A DNA stretch of 20,000 nucleotides from an uncultured virus (IMG/VR IMGVR_UViG_3300033512_000271). Its lineage: Duplodnaviria > Heunggongvirae > Uroviricota > Caudoviricetes. This document shows positions 1-19,998 of this stretch, piece after piece. The first letter of the stretch is position 1, and each line of letters starts with the position of its first letter. A model generated the notes under the pieces. That model saw only the letters and a list, made by a program, of their open reading frames with translations, did no database searches and was not told the origin of the DNA. The stretch lies in IMG/VR virus record IMGVR_UViG_3300033512_000271. One strand, 5' to 3'. The position numbers and the translations under genes are program-made.

Positions 1-240
1 AAGAAGTTGATGTCCTCTTTCGATAGACTTCGGAACGACCTCAAGACGAAAGCTGTCGGTACTGTGGATAAGATGTACAACGCTATGGTGCAGTCGCTTG
101 AAGCTAAGATGAAGTTAGTCAACTCCCAGCTTGAAGAGATCGGGATTTCTGTTTATGAGGGAATAAAACCGCTATTCCATTTACTGATCGACCAGTACAA
201 CACCTTTCTCGGCTTGGTGATAAACGCACTCCAAGCTGTG
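1..240 (+). other. Segment resembling the C-terminal end of the TP901-family TMP core (PhageMin_Tail-like)
   Basis: GTVDKMYNAMVQSLEAKMKLVNSQLEEIGISVYEGIKPLF matches, from memory, the pattern G.a.kMa..m..nL.g....l.Sa.e.l.I.ig..l.P that follows the TP901-family core. This implies the gene start and most of that core lie upstream of the window. Confidence 0.7.
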
Positions 241-3200
241 GGTAAGTTCACAAGCATGTTGGCTGGAGCGTTTGAGCCGCTGTTGAACTGGGTATCTGCG
301 ATTGCAGCCCCACTGATTCAGTTAGTTGGTTTAATTGCCTCGATAGCAGCAGCATTTGTTGTTTGGACAACGGTGGCAGCACTTGTCGAAGTGACTCTTA
401 CTGGGATATCGTTGGCAGCCACATATCTTGCACCAGCCTTAGTTAATGTTGTGGTCGGTCTGGGATTAGTGTCTGGCGGTATGTTGACGTTGACTGGTGG
501 GATATTGGCGGTCATAGCCGTGTTCCAAATTTTCAACAAGGATACGTTGGGCGGGTTGGTACAGGTGTTAAAAGCCACAATGTACATAGCCGCCACTGCG
601 ATCTTCACATTCTCAGAAGCATTCATCGAATCGTTTTCGTCTGCCTCCTCTGCAGTAAGCGGTGTGGTGGACGTGTTTTATGAACTTCTGAATGCAATCG
701 GAGTCCTTCCCGCAATTAATTCAACTGTTAGTATGATGAACTCACTGTTCACTGAGACAGGCGAGGTTAGTGTCGGGTTCAAGAATGTCTTGGTAGATAT
801 TGGGTACTACTCTAGTATTGCTGGTGGGATGTTGGGCGGTGTTTTAAGTGCGGCGATTCATGGGTTGATCATTTTGTTGACGCCCGTGACTACCCTGCTC
901 TCCATGTTTGGAAGTGTGATAATAAATTTCAGCTCACTGTTGCGTGGGATGCCAAGTGATGCCACAACGTTCGGCAAGTCTGTAAGTTCTGTATTTGGAG
1001 GAATTTATGAGGCAGCAGCATGGACGTACACTGAAATAGATTCGATTGTACAGGGGATATACTCGCTGTTCTCATCACTGAAAGACGATATCGAATTTAT
1101 CTGGGAAGACTTGTCTTCCAACTCTCTATTCGATAGTGTGATCGAGGGTATTGATGCTGTCAAGCAGGCATGGGCGTCGTTTACGAGCGGGATGCAAGGG
1201 ACAGAAGTAGGCTCTATCTCTGCGATGTTTGGTAGTTTGGCTGAAGACTCTTCCATGATTGTGGGAGTGCTATTGGACGAACTGGAAATAGCGTTTGGTC
1301 AGGTGGGGATTGCTCTCTTCAATGTGTTTGACGCCCCATTGAAAGCTGTGTACAAATTCTTCAACGAGATATTTAGCCTATTCAGACAATTCACAGGCAT
1401 GATCAGTCTAACTGACATAGCCCCGATTTTTGAATCACAACAAGCTCCCGAAGCACAATCAGAGTCACAAAATCAGGGCGGTGCAGCATCCAAACAACCA
1501 TCAGCCATCACAAGTTTCTATAAATCAGGAGATGTGCTTGCATCAGGTACTGCGTTTGTAACAACATTCGCAGGTGGAGTCATGGCAGGGCTGGGGTATT
1601 TAATCTCAGTCATAGAATTTGTGACTAGCAGCATTGACGCATACTTCCCACACTCTCCAGCTAAAGTCGGTCCACTTGGAGAGCTAGATACTTCTGGTGA
1701 ATCTTTAATCACGACATTCATGAAGGGTGTCTATGATGCTGCGACACAGGCAGATTTTAGTGGGCTGACCACATGGGCAGGCAGATTCTTTGTTGTGGTA
1801 GAAACCGTTGTAGGTGGCATTAAAGAAAGACTGTCAGGAATGTTCGATATCACGTTTAGTGATGTTGCGTCTAGCATACAAAACCTGGTTCTTCCTGAAG
1901 CCCAAGCATCACAAACTAGCGGTGTTGAAAACAAACAGACAACCCTGACGCCTGGACAATCACACCCAGTGTTCCTGCCACCTGTGGGACTTCTGGACAA
2001 GGTGACTGAGAACTTTAAAGCCAAACATCCTGGCGTGTTAGATGTAGCAGTTGAAGTGCAGAGCGATTTGTCTGATTACATCTTCTCCCTCGACAACCAA
2101 CTCAGAAAAGTTGGCTCACAATTCGTTGGTATGTGGGAAGATTTAGTAGGGTTTGTTGGATATGTTATTCAATCAGTGATCGACTTGTTGGCACAGCCTG
2201 CACAAGGGAGCGAGGTGTTTAAGACTTTAGCATTCGAGCCAGCAACAGCTATCCAAGATGTGGAACTGTGGTTGAGTGCAAGATTTCATGACATCTCTAT
2301 GTGGATGGATGGTCTCTATGAATCCATGAAAGATTCCACAACGTTTTTAATATCCAACATCCCGTCGTTGTCTGGTGTGCTGACATCCTCATGGGTGAGT
2401 GCCCAGATCAGCAGTTTGTCTGGATGGTTTAACACGTTCTACAACAGAATCGGTGATGCCTATACGTTCTTGTTCAATGGCATAGCATCTTTAGAACTGG
2501 ACGGCTTAGGGGATAACATAACACTCATAGCCTCTACGTGGGCATCAAACATTCAAGATGCCGCTGCCATGCTGGAACGGGCATACTTATGGTTGAAAGA
2601 CAAATTCTCTGGACTGATGGGGTATGTGAATGGTTGGCTGTCACCCTCTTCTACCCCCAGCCCCTCTTCTACCCCCAGCCCTTCTACTACACCAGCCAGT
2701 AGTTTTGGTAAAGCAGATGTCCCATCTGCACTCCCTGTATTTGAGAAGTTTAAGAGCTCTGTTTCGTTTGACGGTAGATTGCCTAACAATGTGCTGAACA
2801 GTCCGTTTGTGATGAAGGGATACAAGCCCCAAGAAAATGTCACAGACACACAGATCAACAAGGCGGCAAGTGCAATCAAAACAGCAATTGCGGATGGTGC
2901 TGTATCACTGACATCGTTCCCTCAAGACATTCAAGATGCTTTGGGTGGGAAAGAAGGGAAGTCTATGGTGGAAGCCCTTCGTAATAATGCCGCAGTCACA
3001 GTGAAATACAGTCATCAGAAGGACGCAGCAGACGCCACTCTACGAAGCCAGAGCAAGTTTAATACGTTTGGCGGTGCTCTCGATTCTATCGCCAACCCGG
3101 AGATGTTCTCCACTGGGTTGAGCAAAGAGAAAGACATTCAGCAAAAGCATCTGTCCTTCATCATAGATGTTGACCCGTTGACGTATTTCTTGTACGCAGT

Positions 3201-6200
3201 AGAGAAGGGGTTCGTGCAACTGGGTGTGATGTGGCACACTCATGTAACACAAAGAATAACCGATACGTTTGGTAGTGATAGTTGGCTGTCACAGGGATTT
3301 GAGGCATTCGATGCATTTTTCGGGTGGGTGTTGGGTGCAGCGTTGAAGATAGCAGTGCCTGTGGCAAGGCTAATTGGTTCTACGTTCCAGACAGCACTGG
3401 GTATCATCGAATTAACGTTCTTTGATATCTTTGAAACAATAGTGACGGGTGGGGCTAAGATATTCGCAAGTTTGTTCAAGATTTTTGTGGTGGACATAAC
3501 CAGTGTCGGGATGTCGCTATATAACATATTTGGGGGTTTGATTGGGGCTGTGGGTCATGTGTTTTCTGCAATAGCAGCGGTATTCACAATGGACATAGCT
3601 GGTGCAGCATCCCACATGAGTCTGGCATTCCAAGATGTGCTGTCTTCACTGTATCATGTCGGCAAGGGGATTTTGGCACTGTTCTACCCAGGTATTGCAG
3701 ATGCTATTTCTGGGGTTATTTCTGGAGTGTTGGACATAGTGGTTGGGGTGGGACGTGCGGGGGCTGAGTTTTATCTGATGATGGGTGGGTTGCTCAACAT
3801 GAAGGTGTTGATGATCCAGTTGGGTGCTGTCTGGTACGATTTCATGTTACGGGCAGATTTAGTGCGGAAGATATTCGATGCACTTGGGAACATGACAGCA
3901 ACTACGATACGGCTGTTTGAAAAACTGGTCGGGATAGATATTTCCAAGCTGTGGAAGGGTTTTGTCAACATCATCTCTTCGATGAAACACCTCCTCTCCG
4001 CAGTGAGTAAAATCTACGAAGCCATCAAAGCCCTGATTGTAGAAATGTTCTTGATGTTTAAGGGCACTGTGCAAGTTTTGGCGATTCTTCCAGTTGTCGG
4101 TAAATTTTTCAGAGACGTGGATGTTCAGTTGGCACAGATGGCTAATAAACGTGCTATGGTGATGGAAGTGGATTTACTTCCAAGAACCAATGCACAGAAG
4201 TTTATTGAAGCCTCCCAAGATGCTATACACGCATCTAAAGTGTATGGTGTGAAAGAAGCCGGGGCTTTAGCCGCAATGGGGTACTCTAAGACAAGATCAA
4301 TCGATCCAGAGTACACGACAGAATCAAAATACGATACAAGACGTGCCCCCAAGTTTGCCCCGCATACGGACTTGAAGGAGTTATCTCGACAACAATTGAC
4401 CGTGATAAACCGGTTCGAGAAACTCAAGAGTGCTTCATCAGTTGTTGGCGCAGAAATGAGAGCCGCACAAATTACATTTCTTGAAAAAGCTGTGAGGTGG
4501 AATGCAACACTGGTCAGCATGGCTGTGACAGCCTCCCAAGCATTCAGAATGTACTTTAGAGAATTTTTAGATTTCATGGCAATGGTTTTCCCTAAATCGA
4601 AATCATTGTTCACCAGTTTTGCGGCAGCCATTGACAAACAGTTGGTGGGATTTGAGAGAGCAGCTTCAGCAATCTTGTTCTTTAACACAGGGCTTTCGAC
4701 TACGGCAGGTAGAATGTACGCCGTAAGTGCTGTAAATAAAGCTCTTGCGTCTACGTTGAGTATGATCGCCTCTGCTGCTCGTATGGCAGGTAGTGCTGTC
4801 ATGACTCTACTCCACCCCTTCATTTATTTGAAGGATACTGTTAAATATTTGAACGTCACACTTGGCACATCGCTGTCCACGATAATGATGGCTATCACTG
4901 CGGTGGCATCATTCACAGAGTACTACGACAGATTATTGTCATTCTCAGACACCATAAAAGTGTACGTGGGAATCATCATGCAGCCATTTGAATCAATGGC
5001 TGAGGGCATGTATGTTCTCGATCACCTGTTGACATCCACAGAGACCTCTGAAAAAGCTGCTGTCAGCTTCCTTGCTGGATTTGTAGCGTTCCTGTCTATG
5101 GCGTTGTTGCCCATGAATCTGTTTGTTCTTGGGCTTATGACGTTATTCACCGTAATCAATATCAAACCAGAAATAGCGTCAGTAATCTACATGTTCTTCA
5201 AGAACTTTGGCAACTGGTCAGACGACGCCACGAGCTCCATTAGTTCATTGGGCGGGGTTATGTCTGGGTTTGTTAATGTGACTGGACAGGCTTTTATTGG
5301 GTTTTTTACAATGCTGATGTCGGTGATAACAGGGACAATTAATGCAGTGACATCACTGTCCTCATTGATCAGTACCGGGCTGTCATCTAACTTGTCCAAT
5401 ACTCTGGAGGTGGGTAGTGCGGGGGATTCCTTCTCTACAATGGCTGGTAAACGCTCGAATGTGGATTCATCAGTATGGAAAACAGAGTTTAGTGCCAGAC
5501 TGAAAGGTATGCGTGATTTTGCAAAATCGTTTGGAGAGTCTGACGATTCCAGTTTGAACCTTCTTCCCGGCATGTCAATAACTGTGGCTGACGTGAAGAA
5601 GGCGTTAGATTTCTCTGCCGTCAAACATGTAATGCCAGATTTCTTTAAGGAATACACAGGGGAGATACGGAGACTGGACGACGCCAGCATTAAAGACAGA
5701 CTTCAGTCAAACGTAGATAGGGGGCGTAAAACTAGGAAGTCGACGGACAGTGGCGTAAATAGTCTGGATCAAAACGCCATGAATGTCGACAGAATGGAGA
5801 CGGCATCAAAAGACGTGGTGGAAGTTCTCAGCAGAACTCCAGTTAAAATATTCGATGCTAACGTTACAGATAACGTAGGATTTTTCGCAAGTACGTTGAG
5901 TAAGTTGAATGAAGCACTGTTTTCTGTCTACACTGGAATGCAGAAATTCAAATTAGTAGACTTTTCTGTGGCTCTGATCGGGATCGGTGTGCTTGTGTTG
6001 GCATTGACTGGTAGTATTGGGATGCTAGGGTTTGGTATAGGAGGGGCGGTATTTATCGCCACTGCAGCAATAGCAACTTTAGGGCAAGTTATTGCTCGTA
6101 TGAATGATGTGTTTAAGTCCGCAAACAATTCCAAAGAGTTTTTGGAAGGATACATCCCGATGCTATCACTATTGGGTGCGGCGGTTGGTGTGGTGCTTCC

Positions 6201-9200
6201 ATTTCTATTCGGTATGAATGCGGTTATGTTGGGAATTGGGCTTACCATAACCACTGTGAGTTTAACATTCGGATTGTTGATGTCCTATGTCGATAAGTTG
6301 TCCCTCTCTTTTGAGAGCATGGGACAAGCACTCGGCATTGGCTTTAAACTTATGGAAAGAAACCCATTTACAGCTTTCGCTGAATCCATCTTTTATATAA
6401 ACAGTGCCATATCCCAATTTGTGGGTGCTAAGATTTTTGCAGCTATTGACTGGGCTGCCCCAACTGTCGGGATACAAGCAACCACCCTAGCTGTTGTTGG
6501 TATGGTAGCTGCGTTATCCTATCTCACAATACCAGCCACAGTAATCTTACCATCTGTTGTGCTTGGGTTTTCATTGTTGGGCGTAGCAGTGACCGCAGTG
6601 TCATTCACAGTGTATAACGCAAGTAAGATGCTTGATCTATCATTCAGAGATATCCAAAGCTCCATTGAAGGGTTGAGAGAGGTGGAAGTGTTTGGTTTGG
6701 TTGTGCTACAAGCTGTTTCTGTGATGGCAGCGTTTGCAGCACTATCAGCAGGATTTACCCCTCTAGGGATTGCCACAGCCATTGCTGTGGTTGCGTTTGA
6801 CATGATGGCTACATCGTTGGCTTTATTGGCTGTACAAATCAACACAATAGGCGACAGTAATGCAGGAAGCTCTATTTCAGTTTTCGGATACGCTATCTCC
6901 CAACTCTTAGACACCTTTAGATACCTGTTTGATATCATCTATTCGTTGAAAAACGAAATGCTGACCATCGGTGCTGTGGTGTTAAACATGCCCGTTATTG
7001 GTCTAGTAGCCAACATCTACAGAACATTGGTAGAGTTTCGTGGAGTACTCTATGAATTCGCTGACAATGTGGTGATGGTGTTTGGCGATTACACAGTAGG
7101 GCTGGCAGATGCAGAAGATGCAACACAGAGTTTTGGAAGAACGTTGATCTACATCTTCGCAGGGGTCTTGATAGCTATTGGTCTTATATCGTCCCCGTTG
7201 TACTTGCTCGCAGGAACTGTAACGGCGGTCGGGGCTTCAGTCTCGTCTGCATCTGTGTTTGTCGGTAGTGGGCTTGCCACCATTTCGGGGGCAGTGACCA
7301 ACGCTACTACAAGCATGTTACTGCTTACCTCCACGTTCAAAGAGTCGTTGTTGGTGGCATTCCTCACCCCTATGAACGTGTTAAGTCTGTTCTTATCACT
7401 GATCACTACGTTCCAAGAGAAGATCGCATCAGTGCACAAAGCCCTGCTGGACTTCATTGCAGACATCACTGGTCAACGGAATATGGTTGTCAAGATGGAG
7501 TATGAGCCGCAAATACTCACTAAGAAGAAAGATACAGACGGCAATCAAATAGTCGCCGACAGAACTACTCTGGGCAACACCCCATTGACACAAGCAGACA
7601 TCACCTCAATGGGTGCTACTGGCAGACAGCAACAGAACAAGATTGATACCCAGAATGCGTTTGCCAAGGATGCTGTCTCAGGGAACACTGCAGATAAATT
7701 CATCGTAGGGCTGACTGGGTTGACTCGTGAAATCCCCAATAGTATTGAGAGAATAAAAGATTCAGCGACCAAAGCAACTGTGTACACCCCACCACTATCA
7801 GCTTTAGCAGCGATTACAAACACAGTGATGGCTGGGCGGACATTGGGAGAAGGGCAGGAATTGGTATTAGTTGAAAAGTACACTGAATTGACTGGGGCTT
7901 CCACCAAGTTCATGACGCTGATATACGTCCTCATAGGGGCTGCCCTGCTTTTATTAGCAGCTTTCATAAAGGTCAGAATATCAGTGATGATGATGGAAGC
8001 TAAGGCGTTGGGTGAATTCAATGCGTTTAAAGCACAGCACACTGGAATCAAGAAGGGCAAGATCAAGCCTAAGTCATTAGCCAATGATGATGAACTGTCG
8101 TCAGAAGATTTTGTTATGTCTGGTACATTCAACGAATACTCCAGAAACGGTAAGCCAGTGTCAAAGATTGGTAGCTCAACTATCGACACTTTGTCCCATG
8201 CAGATGCTACTAAAGAGTATATGGCATATGTGAAATCCAATAAGACGGATTTGGTTGGGAAGAGTGATTGGATGAAGTTGCAGGTCAGTAAACTACGTGC
8301 TGAAAATGAGAAGCTGTCTACCATGACTTCTGAGTTTAAAGAGTCTGGTGGAATGGACTTGGAGTTCGTTGATAAAAGACTCGCAGTGCTGAAAGAGAAG
8401 GCTGGGGATTTAAAAGGCAAACACAACGCATATCAAGGAAGTATTGATGAAGTGGTTAGGACTGTGTCGAAGTTAGAAGCTGAGGAGGAGAAGTTAAAAG
8501 CGAAGATCGACAAGTATCGGGGCATGCCTAAATTAAACGCACGTCAGAAAGACTCGTATTCTACAGCCCAACAGTCTTTAGAAGGTACTAAAGAACGGTT
8601 GAGTTACAACAAGGCGTTGATTAATAGGTTGCGTCAAGAAAACAAAACAGCACTCATTGAAACCGAGGATGCTTACCAACGTCAAGAGATTGAGGTGAAG
8701 CAGTACGAAGACCTTCGCAAGAAGTTGATCAAAGGGAAAACTGTATCGGAGGCAGACATAAGTAAGAACATGTCTACCAACAGCGAGAAGATATTCCAGT
8801 ACGAAGACTATCTCAAGAGACATTCCGCCACATCAGGTGGACAGTCGTTAGTGCAAATGTCTCTCAACAACATCAAGAGAGAAGGATACACTGAGGAAGA
8901 CATAAACAATACACTGCGTTCTTCTAAACTGAACAACGCAAAAGTTAGCCCAAAGATTTTTTCACTCAAGTCCATGATGTCGTTTGGCACACTTGGGGAC
9001 AATGTGTCACCACATGCTCTGAACTTATTCAAGCTCAACAAGTTCAGAAGATCGACCAACAGAGAAATGTTGACTGACATCAAGCAAGGCGCATCTAGCA
9101 CATATCAGGACACTCAACCAGAAGTGGATAAACTCGTCAAAGAGTTATCTCCAGAAGCAATTGACTCCAACATGCGCAACGTGATACCTAGATTGCGTAA

Positions 9201-12200
9201 GCAGATGTACAACGCAACCTTGAAGAGCAGAAAGGGGGCTAACAAAGCTATCGGTTCCCCAGAGGAGATGGCTAGATTCCTCAATACTTACCAGTCACAA
9301 ATGAAGAGTTTCGTAGAGACTGCAAAGAATAGAATCAGTGATGAAGTTGATGTGGGTGAACGTGACAAGATTTTACAGACGATGGAATCATTGATGAACA
9401 AGAATATTCTTGCAATGACCAACACCGTCAATAAAGCCAACATGAAGTTGGATAACATCAAGCTGTACGAATTGAAAGCTGTTAGTGATGTGTTGGGGAT
9501 CGCATCATCACCAGTAAATGCGACACACTTAGCGCAGGCAACCCGCTATGGCTCTGAATTAGAAGCCAACTATGAGAAAAGAGAAAAGACGCCAAGTCAA
9601 GCTGTCAGAATAGTTGGACCAGAAGCATCTGAGAAACTCATTGCCACTGATGACGCATACCGCAGCAAGCGGGAAAAATTAATTCAGACAATGGTTGAGA
9701 GTTCCACCACTACATCTGCTTCATACAAGAAAGCCCAGCTTGCGATGATCGAGTTGGAAAGAAAGCACACAACTGATATTGTTGGTGAATTAGAAAAACG
9801 AGCCAATCAGATTAAAAACTCCCCATTACAAGATATTGAGGCGCAGTATGCTAAAGAGGAGTTGGAGGTCAAGAAAGGGTTTGTGAACTCCTACATCATG
9901 CTGCAAGCAGAACTTGACAGAAAAGCCGCTTCGTCTGCTGAGAAAGCCGTAATGCTCCAAGAGTTGGCTGCATCACAACGTAAAACGTTAGAAACGTTTA
10001 ACAGAAAAAGAAGTGATGAAACTGCTAAAGTTATGATGAAGATTGAGCTGGACGACATCTCAGCTAAACACAAAATCAATGACCTGAAGGCAAGTGCATC
10101 AGTCATAAGTGAAGAATATTCAGCGACACCCAAGAAGCAGAGCAATCAGTCTCCAGTTGTTGCAGCTAGAGGTCAGACCAAGGCAGACGATGCTTATGTA
10201 AAACGGTTTTCCCAATACATGGGAGATAGTGCAAAGGATTATGTGTTTGAAGTAAATCGTTTGGGTAAAGCGTTGGGTGTGATGCATGATGCCTTCTCTT
10301 CAATCGGCACCGGCATGAATAAGTCGTTTGCATGGGTATGGGGTATCGGCACACAGATTCACAATACGTTTGCTAAGTGGGACGAAAGTATGGGTTCCGC
10401 ATCAAACACATTGGTGAAATTTGCATACATGATGGTGTCTACTGTTATCAAGGCAGTAATATCATTTGCATCATCCATCAATGGGGCTATAGGCACAAAC
10501 TTAGGAAAGATGTTTAGCGGTATTGGGAATGCAATTGGATTCGTGTCTGCCAAAGTAGGTGCTAAGAGAACTGCAAAAGCTACTCACGAAGATTTATCAC
10601 CCACCACTAACGAAGTAGAAAAATTTAGTTGGAATGAAGCCGCACTCAAGACATTCGAGAAAAGTGTTCACGACGTGGACAAGTTCTTAGAGATAAGAAG
10701 CAATGCGGTTGCAGCCATAGTAGATGAAGCCAGAACAGTCAAACGCCTTAAAACCAGACTAGACTCGAATAAGGCTGACCAAAGTGAGTACGTGGCTGTC
10801 GAAGGGTGGAAAGAAGGGAAGGGGAGACATTCATCTGGTGTAGATATGTTTGCTAGGGGACCTAGTGGTTCTGATTTGATTTCAACCCAAAAGGCGATGG
10901 AAGCCCATATCGAGAAACAGATTAAAGGGTTGAATGACATCCTGACCTCTGCCGATATGACCACGACTCTATCACCAGAAAAAATCGCTACACTGAAAGA
11001 ACACAAGGCGAAGCTGAGTGCCCAACTTGAGAAGATGATTAAGACTGATCCAACGTTGAGAGCAGACATGACTCAGATGACGGCTGCCGAGTATCGCCAA
11101 CATCTATTGGATACAGTCTCAACTGAAGACCCGAATTCAGCAGTACCACTACCTGCAAATAAATTAGGTAAAGTGAAACGCACAGAGGTTGAAGTTAAAG
11201 GTGAACGCCACCTCAGCAGACTCAGCGACACAACTGACACCTATATTGCCATGCTAGAAGCTGGAGCACCATCGACCAGACTGAAAGCCTACGAGGTTAA
11301 ACTTAAACGGGCAAAAGTAGATGCAGAAAAGTATTTCGATCAATTCATCAAATCGTCTGAAGCACAAATCGAGACTTTGCGTAAACAAGCATCACTCGAT
11401 TCAATATCAGAAACACGTCGGGCAAAACTGCTTGAGATGGTTGCGAAAGAAGAAGCAGAACTGGCGCATGCTGTGTCCATGAAGTCAAGCATGTCTGCGA
11501 TTGAAGGGAGACAACAGAATGCAGTCGTTTCAGTCACATCACTAGATCGTGGTGTAGAGAACAAACGTCGCATAGCAAACTCTGCTAACTCTCAAGCCGA
11601 TGCTGTGTACAACGATGCAAACAAGAGTTTCTCAGATGTGCAGAAATCAGCATTCAAGTTTGTCAGACACACAACCAAACTGTTGGGCGACTTAACTGCC
11701 AAGCTGGACACCACAACTCAGAACATCGGTATCCTGAATGGCAAGTTAGCAAATGAACAAAACGATGTAGTGAAACAACAGATTCAATTGGCGATTAAAG
11801 AACAAGAATCATACGCCAACACCCTAGCAAGCTACATCAAGCACCACACAGATCAACTGCACTCACTAGAAAGCAGATTGCAAGCTGGTGAGCACGCACG
11901 ACTGAGAGTAATCAAACCATTTGGTGAATCCAAAGAGGTGGACATCAAGCCACTCACAATCGAACGTCACCAAAAGGCTCTCACTACCAGTAGTCAGCAA
12001 CTCAATCACAGCTACAACAACGAGAAGCTAGATTTCACATCTGTGCAAAAGCATGGCAACACCTTCTTAGCACACGCAAGCCAACTGCTAAAGCATTTCG
12101 ATCACCTGATTACTCAGTACACTCAGAACATCGACGCACTCAACGTAGCATTCGATGCCACCACTGACCCAGCACACAAATCTTTAATCCAAGATAAGAT

Positions 12201-15200
12201 TAAAGAGATGCATGCCAATCGTAATAAGTTCCAAGCAGACAAACATGCTCTGTTAGCACAGACCAATGACACATCTACACTACTCAACGCTGGTGTACCA
12301 CAACGTGATGCAAAACTCAAAGCCAATGCAATCACCGCACGTTCAACTGACCTCTTGGCTCAAGTCAAAATATTAGATGTAGAAAAACAACTACAGATAA
12401 TCTACGACACCAAGATCAAAAACCTGAATGACGAATACAGAGCAGCATTCAGTGCCGCACGTACACAATCAGAAAAAGACAAAGTACAAGCTACCCATCT
12501 AAGCAGAAGAGCAGAAGTAGATACTGATAGAAAGAAATCAACAGCCGTGTACACACGCATGCATGCTGATCCACTATCCATGCCTACCCAAGACTACTCC
12601 AGAATAGAATCAGACATCAAGATAGTCAATGCTGTCTCTGCAGCCGAGAACAGAAAACAACTCTCTATCAAAGCAGCAAAAGAATTCACTGACTTCTACA
12701 ACCATATTATTCGTACAATAAGTGGTAGATTAGAAAAAATGATGTCCACCGAAATAAGCGTCGGAGGAGACCAGTCAGCATCTCTGGGCAATGTACTCAC
12801 CAACCTATCGGGAATCTCATCCAAAACATGGACGGCTGTAATAAGACGGTCAGAAGAAAGAATCTCCAAGTACAATAAATTTCTGATCAAGAAACATGCA
12901 GAGTTCAGCCATAACGCAGAAACTGTATTCCAATTCGTTGAAACAACGCAAGGCAACACCCCATTCAACGATAACGACTACAAAGACTTGCTTAAAACTC
13001 TGACGACAAAACAGAAGCGCATTAACCCTGTTACCAAGAAAGAGGAAATCAGCAAGCCGATACTACGTGATGTACAGAATGCACAAGCTGCTATCGACTC
13101 TGCCCGTATTCAAACAGCACATATGGGAGTCACAGCAGAAGCTGACCCAGAAGAATTCAATAAAGTATTTCTCTCTAACTTGAGAGTAGTGCTTAAAGGG
13201 CTGGCTGATAAGAATTTGTATACAAGCATGGCACGGTCTAAGAATGTAATAGAAGCGAGAACCAAGACTGCATTGCCTGTGCTGCCCAAAGAATCTGTCA
13301 TAGGCATGTACAACACTTTGACCGAACTCCAAGCCCAAGCTCCTAAAGGTGCTGGAGTAGGATTCAATGCAGGCACAACTTCTAAGATGCAGAAGATAGT
13401 GGGCAGCCAACCGCTTACATCTGAAAGTTTCGGTAAGATGTCTGAAGAGAATAAGCTAGAAGTGTATCGTGCAGTAGAAGCTCACTCTAAGCAAATCACC
13501 GATACTAAACTCATCGATGACATGCGGAAGAAAGTTGGCTCTCTGTATCAGAAATCAGTGGCTGCTTCTACTACTGCTGAAAAAGAACTTATTACACGTG
13601 AAGCCAAGAAATGGGAAAAGATACTTACTACTCTCTTAGATGCTAATGTGCAGTTTGCTGCTGGGATGAAAGGTTCAGGTAGTATGGGCAGCCTCATCTC
13701 TCTATATTCAGATGCTGTGCAGAAGTACAATTTGAATATTGCTGCCCATGCCCATGAAGCTGAGGCACGGGTAAAAGAAGTTATCAAAGCTATGCGGAAG
13801 GTTGATGCAAATGATACTGCCGCTATAGAAGCTATCTTGCGTGACTTGACTGACCTGAACAACATTCAGCAAGGGTTGCCTGTTACCAAGCCTGTGGGCA
13901 GACCTCATAAAGAGCAACGTGGGAAAGAGTTGGGTCAAGCTCGCCCACCAGTAGCAGTGAGCCATGATTCAGTATCTCCTTCTGTACTAGATGAAACAGC
14001 GATTGCTGCTAAGAAGAAATCATTCAGTAGCGTTACCCAAGCAGAATATATTCAACATCTATCCAAGCTGAGTATGATGATTGGGAAGATGGAAACTGCG
14101 ATAGGTGGATTGGCTGGTGCTGTAAATAGAAATAGTGAATCTCAAGCGAGCACTATGGGCAGCTTGGATAAAAACTCTGTTGCCACTGAATCCAATACTA
14201 CTGCTACCCAGCACAGTGCTGATGTAGTACGTGAGTCGATTACTATAAGAGAGCATGCTACTCCTCGTACCCCACATACTACTGAAGCAGTGACTGCTAA
14301 ACTGGAAACTGGATTAGGGAAGAAAGAAGCTGAGGTGTGGGCAGCATTGAAATCTGCATCTGGCACTTCTTTAGCCCAATTATCTAAGCTGTCGCAGCAA
14401 TTACAAGGATTTCATTCTAATTTAAATCTACCTGCTGAACAAAAAGTTGGATATGACAGAACAGTAACTGCACTGAAGGCTACTAAGCAAGTACATGCTG
14501 CATACGCAGATGTCACTGGTATCGGTCATGCAGTCGTACAGCCCAAGGGTGGGATGACATCTTTAGTACAGGGCATGGCTAAGGATGATATTACTCCTAA
14601 GATGAAATCGTCTGTTATCAAGATGGTGATGGAACTTGATAAGGTGGGATTGGATAAATTCGGAATCCACATATCTGAGAAAATGCTCAAGCTAGTATCT
14701 TCTTCTAAAGGTTCTGGTAAAGCACTACTGGCTACCTTTGCTGAAGGTATGCGTGCAGGCGATGGTCAATTGATTAGAGAGTTGACTAAGATATTGCAAT
14801 TAATCGATGAACACTTCCCTCACTCAGACCCTAAACGTGGACCACTGAAGAGATTGACTGCATCTGGTAAATCTATGATGACTACCCTTGCAGAAGGGGT
14901 CAAGCATGGTGCATCTACATTAACGGGTGCTGTATCTGGTGCTATGGATGGTGTGAAGGGCACGGTGAAGAAAGCTGCCGATGATGTGAAGAAAGAATAT
15001 CGTAATGCTGTAGAGAAGAATCATAGTGGGGAAGCATGTCCAGTAGATGTTACTTCCAGAGGTGGTGCTGCTACTGCTGCCCAACCTAAGTCTGGATTCA
15101 TGGGTAAAGTACAAGAAGCATTCGCACATACCAAGGCTGCATTGACCGCTGTAGGTTCAGTAGGTATCAGTGGAGCAATTGGTGTTGGGAATGCTATGAA

Positions 15201-18200
15201 TGCGATGTCAGAAAGAATCAAATTTGCAAATGCTGCCGCAGTAGCCCTCAAATTCACACTAGGCGGTTTGTTTGGTGTATTGGGTGGCTTGATTGTTATG
15301 ACCGTCTCAAATGGATTCTATGAATACATTCAAGCATACCTAGACAGAATTGGTTTCTCATTTGAATTTGTGATTGGTATACTCAGAGGGCTGTGGGCAT
15401 CTATCCAACAAGCAGAAATATTAGATATTCTCAGTAACAAAGTCACAGCAGTCACAGCAGCAGTAGTTGGTCTAGCACTTGGTGTAAGCTACTTATTGCC
15501 AGTATTTGGATTGTTCGGTATTGCAGTGGGCTCAAGTATGGCTCTGTTAGGCGGTGTTGGTATCGTACTCGGTGCTGTAGCGGTCAGTCTTTTTACTATG
15601 GGCGATGCATTAAGTGCCGTTTCATTTAAAACACTGATCGACACTGCGATGGATTTCAGTGCAAATGTGATTCGCTTAAGTATCGACTTAGCTGGATTGC
15701 ACTTGGCTACCAGTCTTTTCATAAAAGGTGGATTACTTGGATTAGCCACTGCTTTGCAAGCCCCAACCATAGCAATGACTACTTTAGCATTCGGTATGTC
15801 TAAAGGCATCGCATTCTATGTTGGTCAATCAGTCGCTATGACATTGTTGATTGGCACTATGGCTGTGTTACGTGGTGCATATGTGGCTACCGAAGTGGCT
15901 GTATTGGCAATTTCTTCTGCAACAACTATAGCCACTACAGCAATGTATGGGTATGCTGCAGCAGCCAAGTCCAGTGCTCTTGTTGCACCACTGATTACTG
16001 CAATGACTGCTGCATGGACGTTACTGGGCACGGCTCTATCTTTTGTGAATGTGGCTATGGGTGGGCTTTTATTTAAAGCATTCGCACCATTGGGTACGAT
16101 GATACCAGCGGCTACTACTGCTATCTATGGGTTGGCTGCCTCTATGTCCACAGTACTGTTACCTGCCATAGTATCCATTGGAGGGTATCTTTCTATCATG
16201 GGTGCTGCAATGCTCGTCAATCCTATCACATGGATGGTGGCAGGCATAGCTGCATTGGCTGCGATAGTATATTTAGCAGTACACAGCTTCGGTACTATGA
16301 ATGATACGTTGGAAGACCTTGGTAGTGTTGCTCAAGTTGTGGGTTCTCTCTTGTATGCGGCATTTAATTGGCTGTCATTCGGCTTATTAGACCAAATCTT
16401 CCCATATGTGGATGCCTTGTTATTGATTTTCTCTAATATGGGCAAGTCGATCAGTAAAGGGTTGCAAGAATTAGAAAACGGAAACATCCTAACAGGATTA
16501 TTCGATATTCTAGTAGCACCATTTTTAGTATTTGGTGCGGCAATACTGAATATCATGGCGGCAGCATTCGATTCAGTGTTATTAGGCATACCTAGCTGGA
16601 TGGGCGGATGGTTAGGCAAAATAACATTCGGAATAGTGGAAGGTGGGAAGGGTGTATATGCCTCTATCGTCACTATCCTGACCTTTGACCCAATACAGCT
16701 TGGATATGATTTAGGTAGTAGATTCGTTAAAGCTATCGGCTCTGCAATAGTAAATGCACCATCAAATGTTACATCAGCAGTATCTGATTATTTAGGCGGT
16801 GCATACAACTACGTTACAGGCAGCACTCCTGCTACTGCCCCTCCTGTGCCTGATTCTACTAAGGCTGCCGCAGACATGGGTAAGAAGTCTGGGTGGAACT
16901 TGGCTAGTTATTTCGGGATGGGTGTATCTGAAGGTACTCAGCAAGCAGTAGGTAGTGTAGATAAGATGACTGCAGAGATGGACGCTTACCTGCCACACTC
17001 ACCATCTGAGAAGGGTGCGCTACAAGCACTCGACCAATCTGCATTCGCCATTCCTAAGACTATGGCAGATGGCATCAATGCGGGAACATCTGTAGCCGTA
17101 GATGCTACAGCTAAGATGACTACTGCAATCAACAACGAATTGGGCAAGATAAAATCTGTTTCTGCATCTGTTGGTGCTTTGATGACCTCGGCAGAAATGG
17201 AAGGCACTTTGCCTGCATTACAATTAAGTGGATTGCAGGATACGTCTAAGCCCTATTTTGTTCAATCAGATGGCATGCCTACCCTTGCCTATGGGGAAAA
17301 GAGTGCTGGGTTTAGCTCTGCCTCAGAAGTGTCTACTGTAGATTCATATCTACATGCGTACAAGTCCACTGGTGGCGATACTGATGCTGCTATGGCTGAG
17401 ATTGGTAAGACACCGGGTGCTGTGGACAGCTTAAATAATGTGTTGAGTAAATTCGGTTTAGGTGAAAAAGATGTAATGCGGTTGGAAGGCATTGTGAGAC
17501 AGTTAGGCACTGTTGCGGACACGTATGCAGCTACTAGCGATAACATGATAGCTCGTAAAGAAGTGATCGATGGCTCTATGAATGGGTTGTCTGAGGATGC
17601 TCTCAAACTGTTAGCTGATAAAGCGACCGCCATAGATGCAACCATGTCCACAGTAACCTCTAAGCAGAATATAGATGTTATAAACTCTGCTATGGCTGCC
17701 GTCCGCAAAGCTAACGAATCTGAAGCTGCGTTCCAACAAGCAGTGCAGATGATATTCTCCAATAGACCAGTTTCTGCTGATTTGATGTCTCGTCTGAATG
17801 ATAATCAATTGGAGAAATTGACTACTACAGCTAACGCCCCTAACATGGATGTGGTTAGTTCAATGATGGACTCAGTCACCAGAACGAATTATGTGTCTCG
17901 TGCTGATAATCCAGTAGCAGACTCCATCACCTCAGAATTAGATAAACGTAGAACAGCGGTTTCCACTGAACAAGACAAAGAAGCTATCGTTGCCATAGAC
18001 TCACGGATGAAGTCTTCATCTGCATCTAAATCTGGCTATGCTAGAAAAGAGTTATCAGAAATCATCAATCTGAAGAACGATGCAGAATTAGCTCACTTCA
18101 AGTCTCTTGTACAGTCTATGCCAGATGTGCTTGGTGTAGAAATCATCGATATGGTGAACAATCGTGAGAAAGAACTCGTCTCCCAAGCAAAAGAGATTGA

Positions 18201-19998
18201 CACCATAGCTGCTGAGATAGCTAGTAGGAACTTTGAGAGTCAATCAGAGTTCCAGACTTACCTTGATTCATTGAAGCTCACGGAAAGATTCTCTACAGAT
18301 AACTTAGATGTGCTGCAAGCTAAATTGGCTGAGGTGGGTGCTGCTAACCCAGTCGAAAAACAAGAAGTGGCTGGCATAGACATAGGTGGCTGGTTGAACA
18401 AAGGGTTCAAATCGGTGCCTGGTAGAGTGGGAGATGTTAATCAACGGATTGATACTGCTAAGTCACAACAAGCCCAACGTGTTAAAGCCTCTCGTGAAGC
18501 GAATATTACTGGTGTTGTAGAACTGCTCGCTTCAGACGATAAGGAAAAAGGGGCTACCCTCAATACAATCAAGACTCGTTTGATTAAGATTCAGACGGAA
18601 GCCGAGATTGAAGGATTCACTGAAGGGCAGAAGATGTATGCCCAGACCCAGAGAGAGTTGATGCAGGGTGCTGAGAAATCTTCTTGGTATAACCCAATGT
18701 CATGGCTGTCCACTGGTGGTGATGGTGCTAAGAAGCAAGACACCTTCACTGGTATCAAGCACCAAAATATGCAGGCTGCACAGAACGCCTCTATATGGGT
18801 TGATGCTGAAACCTCTTTGAAGGAGATGAAAGGGGCTATTCAGAAGAGCATGATGGAAGTTGATACGTTTGATGATTTTGTTAAACGTCGCAATCAACTC
18901 GGCTTGTACATGAAGCAGACCGACATCGAATCATATAAGCATAAGTGGGAAGAAATGGAGTCCACTAAGTACTATGCTTCACAGATGAACACTGCTTCTA
19001 AGGAACGTGGGAAAGGTGTAGAGGCTAGATTGGGTCGTAATGTCAAAGAACAAATGAGCAGCACTGGTCTAGGTTCATCTGAGTTGGGCAAATTGGCTTT
19101 CGGTATGGCTGACTTGACTAAGGGTGCTGATGGCACATACTCTCGTGACCTCAAGACAGGTGCTACCCCAGATGGTGAAGCGGCTATCTTAGATACTGTA
19201 CTTCAGAAGACTCATGAGTTGAAAGCTACTCGCGATGGTATGTACAAGTCTGAAGAACTGAAGATGGTGGAGTCCATCGACCTAGTTGGTAAATTGCTTG
19301 GTCTTGATAGTGCCCGTGTTGCAGCAGCCAAGGAACGCTACCAAACAGAAGTCATTGCTACTCGTAAAAAAGAGTTTGAACGCAACTTAGCAATGGCTTC
19401 ATTGGATGAAAATAGTAAGAAACAGTTTGAATCGATTGAGAAGTACGGTGTGGAAGAGGGAACGCTTCGCCATAAACAGAGCCGCATAGTAGAGGGAACA
19501 CAGGCTGTAACAAATCGCAGAACAGAAATGGAAACTGCGGGTATGTCTGAAGTAGATAAGAATCGTATCCTGTACACCCGCAGCTACGGGAAAGCTATTG
19601 CAGATCAACTTACCGCTATGGACAAGACTAAGGCTGCCAAAGATGCAATATACACTGCTGACATGCAGTTACAAACAGCAGGCATGCCTGAATATTTAGC
19701 AAAAATGACTGAAAACTCTCGCAAGATGTCAGCAGAAGATGCGAAAGCTATCAGTATGAAGGAACGTTTAACTGATTACACCAAACAAATGGCTGCGGGT
19801 CAACGTGAAATAGCTGCCCTATCTACCATGAACACTCAAGCAGCAGCCAGAGAACGTTTAATTTCAGAAAAAGGATTTACTGAAAAGCAAGCTGACGACA
19901 TCATGGGTATCGAACAAACCAAGAAGTCTTTGGAAAAGGCTAGAACCCTGAAGCTGGAAGTTGAGAAGTACCAACTGCTCAGTGAAACAGATCGTACA
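1..19998 (+). CDS. Giant phage tail tape-measure protein (TP901-like), partial at both ends, >6,666 aa
   Basis: Manual translation of frame +1 (KKLMSSFDRLRNDLKTKAVGTVDKMYNAMVQSLEAKMKLVNSQLEEIGISVYEGIKPLF... to ...KLEVEKYQLLSETDRT) shows no TAA/TAG/TGA over 6,666 codons. The TMP call rests on recognised motifs: a TP901-core-like N-terminal segment, AMLVNPITWMVAGIAALAAIVY (~16207-16272), PHSPAKVGPL-type modules, Trp spaced 11 residues apart, and alternating hydrophobic and coiled-coil-like composition. The ORF itself is near certain; the product call comes from motif recognition, not a database search. Confidence 0.9.
1543..1731 (+). repeat. PHS..K.GPL module, copy 1 of 3 (63 aa, protein-level repeat)
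   Basis: SGTAFVTTFAGGVMAGLGYLISVIEFVTSSIDAYFPHSPAKVGPLGELDTSGESLITTFMKGV; aligns without gaps to copies 2 and 3. Confidence 0.85.
2269..2493 (+). repeat. Two degenerate protein repeats, 41-aa period, with 11-residue Trp spacing
   Basis: WLSARFHDISMWMDGLYESMKDSTTFLISNIPSL (2269) vs WVSAQISSLSGWFNTFYNRIGDAYTFLFNGIASL (2392): 13 of 34 residues identical, no gaps. Confidence 0.7.
2644..2697 (+). repeat. In-frame 18-bp tandem repeat encoding a Pro/Ser/Thr linker
   Basis: CCCTCTTCTACCCCCAGC occurs twice exactly (2644-2679), followed by the degenerate copy CCTTCTACTACACCAGCC; encodes PSSTPS-PSSTPS-PSTTPA. Confidence 0.9.
5960..7400 (+). other. Hydrophobic cluster 1 within the TMP (multiple putative transmembrane helices)
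   Basis: Successive long uncharged runs, e.g. FSVALIGIGVLVLALTGSIGMLGFGIGGAVFIATAAIATLG, MLSLLGAAVGVVLPFLFGMNAVMLGIGLTITTVSLTFGLL, LAVVGMVAALSYLTIPATVILPSVVLGFSLLGVAVTAVSFTVY and LIYIFAGVLIAIGLISSPLYLLAGTV. Judged by eye. Confidence 0.7.
7990..14700 (+). other. Long K/E/Q/R-rich helical, coiled-coil-like region (~2,200 aa) within the TMP
   Basis: Charged, heptad-like sequence such as IDEVVRTVSKLEAEEEKLKAKIDKY and LGDLTAKLDTTTQNIGILNGKLANEQNDVVKQQIQLAIKEQE. Only one short amphipathic interruption (~10260-10560). Confidence 0.7.
14713..14901 (+). repeat. PHS..K.GPL module, copy 2 of 3
   Basis: SGKALLATFAEGMRAGDGQLIRELTKILQLIDEHFPHSDPKRGPLKRLTASGKSMMTTLAEGV. Confidence 0.85.
15230..16700 (+). 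other. Hydrophobic cluster 2 within the TMP, including the NPITW motif
   Basis: FTLGGLFGVLGGLIVMTV, VTAAVVGLALGVSYLLPVFGLFGIAVGSSMALLGGVGIVLGAVAVSLF, VLLPAIVSIGGYLSIMGAAMLVNPITWMVAGIAALAAIVYLAV and ILVAPFLVFGAAILNIMAAAF. Confidence 0.75.
16888..17076 (+). repeat. PHS..K.GPL module, copy 3 of 3
   Basis: SGWNLASYFGMGVSEGTQQAVGSVDKMTAEMDAYLPHSPSEKGALQALDQSAFAIPKTMADGI. Confidence 0.8.
19381..19998 (+). repeat. Degenerate ~47-50-aa protein repeats running off the window edge
   Basis: Anchors MASLDE, ETAGMSE, QTAGMPE, LSTMNT and YQLLSE are spaced 47, 47, 48 and 50 codons apart. A YG pair recurs exactly 47 codons apart (KYG at 19441, SYG at 19582). Confidence 0.55.

Follow-up and report, generated by a model that had tools for sequence, protein, structure and literature searches.

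Tape measure proteins (TMPs) of phages are the textbook molecular ruler. They typically comprise ~600–2,500 residues, and tail length amounts to ~0.15 nm per TMP residue, as in lambda gpH and TP901-1. In the available parts of the sources, TMPs, including lambda gpH, were described as extended in the lumen of the tail tube, where they set its length, and as leaving the tail first on infection and helping to form a conduit (PMC9022992, PMC10770324). The tails of the Thermus phages P23-45 and P74-26 were given there as longer than 800 nm (PMC9022992) and as "nearly 1 μm" (PMC10034513). The largest TMP found in print was the 5,002-residue protein of P23-45, which has a fused enzyme (PMC10770324), and no TMP above 5,002 residues was found in a literature survey that was not exhaustive. 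For a tail longer than 800 nm, the P23-45 protein works out at ~0.16 nm per residue, including the fused enzyme; the measured record is 5,002 residues with a tail of ~0.8–0.9 μm. Here, a 20,000-nucleotide stretch of an uncultured virus of the Caudoviricetes (IMG/VR record IMGVR_UViG_3300033512_000271), hereafter the window, was found to lie wholly inside one gene that spans at least 11,541 codons. With a confidence modestly better than even, the window is read as the interior of the tail TMP gene from an uncultivated tailed phage, probably a large one, whose host is a bacterium with a peptidoglycan wall.

The present protein resembles P23-45 gp96 and the TMP of P74-26 as a giant phage TMP with an enzyme domain. 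It differs in being at least 2.3 times longer, in its ~30 membrane-like helices, and in its three TMP modules. No RNA-polymerase part as in P23-45 was visible in the present protein, whose N-terminus lies outside the sequence, and no Thermus phage occurred among the matches listed in the homology searches, so that no sequence similarity was seen. With the TP901-1-family TMPs (PF10145), the protein shares an ~80-residue module preceded by a hydrophobic stretch. The members of that family are 700–1,900 residues long, judged from the lengths of the HMMER matches, and contain the module once or a few times, whereas in the present chain of more than 11,541 residues the modules were located at residues 509, 4894, and 5623, and the PF10145 core was not found in the window or its relative. 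A conceptual likeness exists to phage T5 Pb2, which we take to be an ejected ruler that degrades the wall and inserts into the membrane, at about one-tenth of the present size.

The open frame, gene length and assembly

Frame +1 of the window, from base 1 to base 19998, comprised 6,666 codons without a single TAA, TAG, or TGA. The first-pass annotation had described this frame as stop-free over the whole window and as absent from the open reading frame (ORF) track. The recount likewise returned no in-frame stop, and the frame was listed only once open-ended frames were allowed, because a default ORF list drops frames that run off both ends. Such lists hide the largest genes. The remaining five frames contained 137, 315, 474, 500, and 511 stops. 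At the stop frequency of frames +2 and +3 (~7% per codon), a 6,666-codon open frame cannot arise by chance, and since stops of all three kinds were absent, the openness was independent of the genetic code. The window contained no N and was not repetitive. The G+C content by codon position was non-random all along the window, with position 2 low over most of it and position 3 the lowest within 14–18 kb.

A protein-pattern scan of metagenome contigs returned one relative (L001), which made up the final 12,987 bases of a contig of 24,624 bases and was open throughout its 4,328 codons. Its first 716 codons corresponded to residues 5951–6666 of the window, with 684 of 716 residues identical (96%). 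The catalogued protein of the same contig (P0081) comprised 5,591 residues, began at the contig edge, at the equivalent of window residue 5951, and terminated at a real stop codon, beyond which ~7.8 kb of the contig remained. Counted from the first codon of the window, the gene comprised 6,666 + 5,591 − 716 = 11,541 codons (~1.24 MDa), a lower bound that combines the window with a 96%-identical relative and leaves the N-terminus open. The earlier length of more than 6,666 residues was thus right about the open frame but understated the protein, to which the relative adds ~4,875 codons. Since the match to the profile phrog_1272 described below started at profile position 503, some hundreds of further residues probably lie upstream of the window.

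Over the 2,148 bases shared with the relative, 139 differed, of which 27, 11, and 101 were at codon positions 1, 2, and 3, respectively. The dS and dN values for the last 716 codons of the window were 0.243 and 0.0255, with a dN/dS ratio of 0.105. The frame is under purifying selection and is a single real gene.

A chimeric or collapsed join creating a false long frame was considered as the other source of such an ORF. Logan contigs of four runs, three from microbial mats (three studies) and one from wastewater, were aligned to the window, and all depth bins were covered in each run (30/30). One contig agreed over positions 1–8031 with two differences. The wastewater contig, from a different habitat, was ~94% identical over 12175–19967 (7.8 kb) and was shorter by a net 18 nt, so that the frame was kept. 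Only two joints were reported, both of which were same-length diverged patches without rearrangement, and of the 40 variant sites listed in the other runs (with 1,153 further sites), 26 fell at third codon positions. The independent assembly of the relative overlapped the last 2.1 kb and extended the same frame, and a random join would break rather than preserve 6,666 stop-free codons. In favour of an artefact, none of the 32 contig pieces listed out of 295 spanned the whole window, and not every junction was bridged by these 32. The four runs therefore gave no sign of the chimeric join that had been named as a risk, and a misassembly is very unlikely.

Tape-measure-like regions and wall hydrolase

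The first-pass annotation had called the protein tape-measure-like and had placed the TP901 core further upstream. A TMP profile match was found in the visible N-terminal part, where residues 3–459 matched positions 503–924 of the 1606 of phrog_1272, "tail length tape measure protein" (E 7.9e-23), which would place any core upstream of the window. Further matches were obtained with phrog_991 (E 9.6e-10), phrog_1533 (E 4.3e-6), and twice with phrog_6435 (E 2.8e-4, and E 2.8e-10 at residues 4730–4993). The description held, with PHROG matches at both ends of the chain and a module in common with PF10145 proteins.

This module was recognized by a HMMER search of residues 1–1200 against 1.84 billion representative proteins at a cutoff of E ≤ 0.001. 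Only a single one of the 78 matches reached E ≤ 1e-10 and none reached E ≤ 1e-30, and in all 78 the best stretch lay within residues 301–651. When 18 of these proteins were scanned with Pfam, 12 carried an N-terminal PF10145 (PhageMin_Tail) domain above cutoff; the other six comprised four without a family and two with unrelated or sub-threshold ones. A hidden Markov model (HMM) built from 34 of the 78 matched regions detected three strong copies of the ~80-residue module in the window (E 2e-27 to 9e-19), with the consensus P-H/S-S-x-x-K-x-G-P-L and a hydrophobic stretch ahead. In the HMMER matches, the module was mostly located at 0.7–0.9 of the chain, and the same HMM found no copy in P0081. 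In support of the third copy, a library match (P0014) aligned through its residues 641–986 with residues 5370–5692 of the window in BLASTP (E 4e-14). A fourth TMP-like stretch at residues ~1159–1354 was weak and is listed as a lead only.

Another library match, a 478-residue fragment (P0002), contained three tandem units of ~155 residues, each with the TMP module (..LLPSSDAKKGPLSNL..) and a hydrophobic hairpin. The module and hairpin can therefore serve as a repeat unit in other TMPs.

The C-terminal end lies beyond the window, in the 96%-identical relative, and was of the TMP type. Residues 5416–5480 of P0081, within its last ~150 residues, contained two "FAxGG / GGF ... GE.G(P)E..LP" motifs, and GG..P..GE.GPE..P is presumably a TMP-type C-terminal motif. 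The motifs matched phrog_12798 (E 6.2e-8) and phrog_34082 (E 8.4e-8) near the C-ends of these profiles, as well as annotated TMPs of Streptomyces, Synechococcus, Salinibacter, and Haloarcula viruses. Judged from these profiles, the chain is TMP-like at its visible start, internally, and at its end, with the parts arranged as in ordinary TMPs.

Downstream of the window, residues 1566–1727 of L001 formed a VgrG3-type peptidoglycan hydrolase domain (PF21277, E 1.3e-37; E 1e-19 against PDB codes 4NSO and 4NOO), which was also matched by the "putative VgrG" and "chitosanase-fold" tail proteins of jumbo phages. The likeness to Vibrio cholerae VgrG3 was confined to this C-terminal hydrolase domain (PF21277; 4NOO, 4NSO), beyond the window, and the gp27/gp5 spike part of VgrG3 was not found in L001 by Pfam. 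Directly ahead of the domain, at residues ~1450–1545 (4350–4640), an SxHxxGxAxD...HxH pattern was noticed by eye, which we take to be the signature of LAS/M15 zinc peptidases. The top Pfam family for this region was Peptidase_M15_4 (E 0.14; 13.2 bits, with the cutoff at 25), and its AlphaFold2 (AF2) model had a predicted local distance difference test (pLDDT) value of 41.8. A putative second wall hydrolase, an M15/LAS-type zinc peptidase, is only a lead here.

The hydrolase bears on a different origin, in which TMP modules and a wall hydrolase would have been borrowed by a conjugative element, by a tailocin or contractile injection system, or by a giant bacterial protein that is secreted or sits in the envelope. 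In favour of this origin, the hydrolase family takes its name from a type VI secretion spike, the sequence showed no phage context, the phage collections searched gave no relative, and giant bacterial genes linked to cell-wall degradation have been described (bioRxiv 10.1101/2023.11.21.568195), although "tape measure" occurs 0 times in the available part of that text. All named profile matches above noise, whether N-terminal, central, or C-terminal, were to phage TMP families and followed the ordinary TMP order. In the window and L001, Pfam and NCBIfam detected none of the families of adhesins, Ig-like or cadherin domains, gp27/gp5 spikes, or conjugation proteins (MobA, at E 0.022, was far below cutoff), and self-BLASTP of the window translation at E 1e-2 revealed no internal protein repeats. 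In all records that had an annotation, the weak matches listed by tblastn with residues 1–700 lay in genes for TMPs or tail proteins, and the single plasmid match was itself an annotated phage TMP. Protein-pattern scans of 185,579 species genomes returned no relative. An origin outside phages is therefore improbable.

Chain anatomy, tail length and alternative readings

Approximately 30 membrane-helix-like segments remained after merging of overlaps. They were confined to residues 94–5532, where they formed five blocks (Kyte–Doolittle 19-residue windows ≥1.6 and uncharged runs), and the hydropathy scan found none in P0081. Proline was mostly below 3% along the chain, and cysteine occurred once in the 6,666 residues of the window and not at all in the 5,591 residues of P0081. 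In the region at residues ~2700–4729, neither Pfam nor NCBIfam identified a family, PHROGs gave no tail match, and the two Atlas look-ups, including that of this region, provided sub-threshold tape-measure leads only (scores 0.87–0.90). The AF2 model of residues 4880–5720 was nearly all helix, with a mean pLDDT of 40.3. Residues 3049–3161 of P0081 (L001 ~9150–9480) formed a 113-residue charge-free run rich in Gly, Ala, Asn, and Ser (..AGANLTAGGINASANIAAGGANANANL..), a low-complexity spacer.

Several observations weigh against assignment of the window to a phage tail TMP gene. The tape-measure models of Pfam and NCBIfam, including PF10145 and TIGR01760, matched neither the window nor L001. The TMP likeness is based on PHROG profiles together with a short module, and a non-phage protein could have borrowed both. 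No relative was found among 50,697 phage records by megablast or by tblastn with residues 1–2000 (E 1e-5), nor in IMG/VR by scans with the exact DNA of the first and last window bases and with protein patterns. Approximately 9,000 of the 11,541 residues matched nothing in Pfam, NCBIfam, PHROGs, HMMER, and protein searches. The window is wholly inside the gene, and no tail tube, chaperone, Dit, or baseplate neighbour was seen. The ~30 membrane-like helices far exceed the few of ordinary TMPs, and both AF2 models were of low confidence (pLDDT 40.3 and 41.8), so that helicity is only a tendency.

As a phage TMP, the chain would be loaded into the lumen of the tail tube as a bundle, extended and for the most part helical, and would set the length of the tube, by analogy with lambda, T5, and P23-45. 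On infection, it would be ejected, the hydrolase domain or domains would open the cell wall, and the hydrophobic blocks would insert into the membrane or membranes to form a DNA conduit. If all 11,541 residues counted at ~0.15 nm each, the tail would be ~1.73 μm long. The ~1.0 μm estimated in the first-pass annotation would accordingly become ~1.7 μm with the longer gene, as a figure calculated from residue number.

The chance of a tail longer than 1 μm is put at a little below even, because the modules are dispersed, the membrane-like helices are numerous, and ~9,000 residues have no homologue and would suit just as well a chain made up mainly of conduit or payload. In such a phage TMP homologue, a minority of the chain would act as the ruler, most of it would be payload or conduit that is compactly stored or cleaved, and the tail would be ordinary or moderately long. 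The wide spacing of the modules, as if several TMP-like units had been strung together, the five blocks of membrane-like helices, and the folded enzyme domain or domains in the chain point in this direction, and enzyme-carrying TMPs are known (PMC10770324, available part). However, in P23-45, the sole measured giant case, the whole chain of 5,002 residues seems to count towards the tail of more than 800 nm, and no evidence of cleavage sites was obtained, since the FAxGG...GExGPE joint was present at the very C-terminus only. For the same reason, these joints were rejected as borders of internal cassettes. A predominantly conduit or payload chain is possible but doubtful.

The boldest form of the ruler assignment, a mat phage (with a relative in wastewater) whose tail of ~1.7–2 μm, approximately twice the longest known, is measured by a single 1.2-MDa ruler that evolved from several TMP units strung together, is likewise rather unlikely. 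If it were true, the extra length and the ~30 helices would let the phage reach and breach cells under thick sheaths or slime layers, and the chain would be the largest phage protein yet tied to a defined structural role. A tail near 1.7 μm would stretch ideas on the assembly, integrity, and use of the tube; the other outcome would be that the ruler rule fails in giant versions, in which the chain is mostly an injected conduit or payload. At 11,541 codons or more, this TMP-like gene is read as an extreme new form of a known type, marked in its visible part by numerous membrane-like helices and recurrent TMP modules rather than by nucleic-acid enzymes.

Feature coordinates and variation within the window

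The features of the window are collected in Table 1.

Table 1. Features of the 20,000-nucleotide window, with residue numbers of the frame +1 translation
Feature	Residues	Position	Strand	Basis
Internal fragment of a single giant gene, 6,666 codons, both ends open	1–6666	1–19998	+	0 stops; dN/dS
Tape-measure-like region	3–459	7–1377	+	phrog_1272, phrog_991, phrog_1533
Hydrophobic block 1	94–314	280–942	+	Kyte–Doolittle; uncharged runs of 37–49 residues
TMP module copy 1 (..PHSPAKVGPL..)	509–584	1525–1752	+	HMM E 2.1e-27; phrog_6435
18-bp × ~3 tandem repeat encoding a Ser/Thr/Pro linker (..SSTPSPSSTPSPSTTP..)		2644–2697	+	Repeat scan, translation
Hydrophobic block 2	1107–1367	3319–4101	+	Hydropathy
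TMP-like stretch (weak)	~1159–1354	3475–4062	+	HMM (1159–1243) E 0.0033; phrog_1272 E 0.0018; phrog_1535 E 0.031
Hydrophobic block 3	1685–1783	5053–5349	+	Hydropathy
Hydrophobic block 4 (largest)	1982–2471	5944–7413	+	Uncharged runs of up to 66 residues
Lone strongly hydrophobic helix	2633–2667	7897–8001	+	Peak hydropathy 2.63
Charged, proline-poor region without homologue	~2700–4729	8098–14187	+	K/R/D/E 24–34%, Pro 0.8–3.2%
TMP module copy 2 (..PHSDPKRGPL..), inside the phrog_6435 match (4730–4993)	4894–4981	14188–14979 (phrog_6435 match)	+	HMM E 2.1e-24
Hydrophobic block 5, between module copies 2 and 3	5079–5532	15235–16596	+	Hydropathy
TMP module copy 3 (..PHSPSEKGAL..)	5623–5707	16867–17121	+	HMM E 9.3e-19
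Charged, proline-poor region, running on into the relative	~5750–6666	17248–19998	+	K/R/D/E 24–34%; from residue 5951 on, 684/716 identical to L001/P0081

The tandem repeat in the table was the sole one in the window. Pfam and NCBIfam scans of the window gave no family, and an Rfam scan gave no match. No RNA dataset was listed among the sequencing runs carrying the sequence. A scan of metagenome contigs with the exact DNA of the first and last window bases gave no match, and word-indexed protein searches found neither relatives of 3,666–11,666 residues with residues 1–5000 nor shorter ones with residues 1–700.

Four ORFs of 157–293 residues, the longest of the minus strand, were located at 4125–4823, 5187–5690, 7545–8426, and 17289–17762. 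None of them gave a family in a Pfam scan, and they were taken as shadows of the coding frame. Only 137 stops occurred in the minus frame 1, a low number that is to be expected on the strand facing a long coding frame.

The G+C content at codon position 3 (2-kb bins) was 0.47–0.50 in the first 10 kb, compared with 0.33–0.42 in the second, and the AT skew was strongly positive at 8–14 kb. These shifts may reflect the composition of the charged region or a mosaic origin of parts of the gene.

A dense cluster of alternative letters was observed at 14777–14911 (residues ~4926–4971, in TMP module copy 2) and was shared by the mat run X1 and the wastewater run X5. The pattern resembles a patch, allelic or recombinant, within a conserved module. 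The changes were not adenine-specific and so do not resemble targeting by a diversity-generating retroelement. The wastewater contig had small deletions at 15014–15071 and was 18 bases shorter overall across 12175–19376. Residues 6451–6550 (~19351–19650) accounted for 22 of the 32 amino-acid differences from L001, and so mark out a locally variable spot whose surroundings are conserved. The "same length, diverged" patch of the wastewater contig at 19376–19475 fell within this spot.

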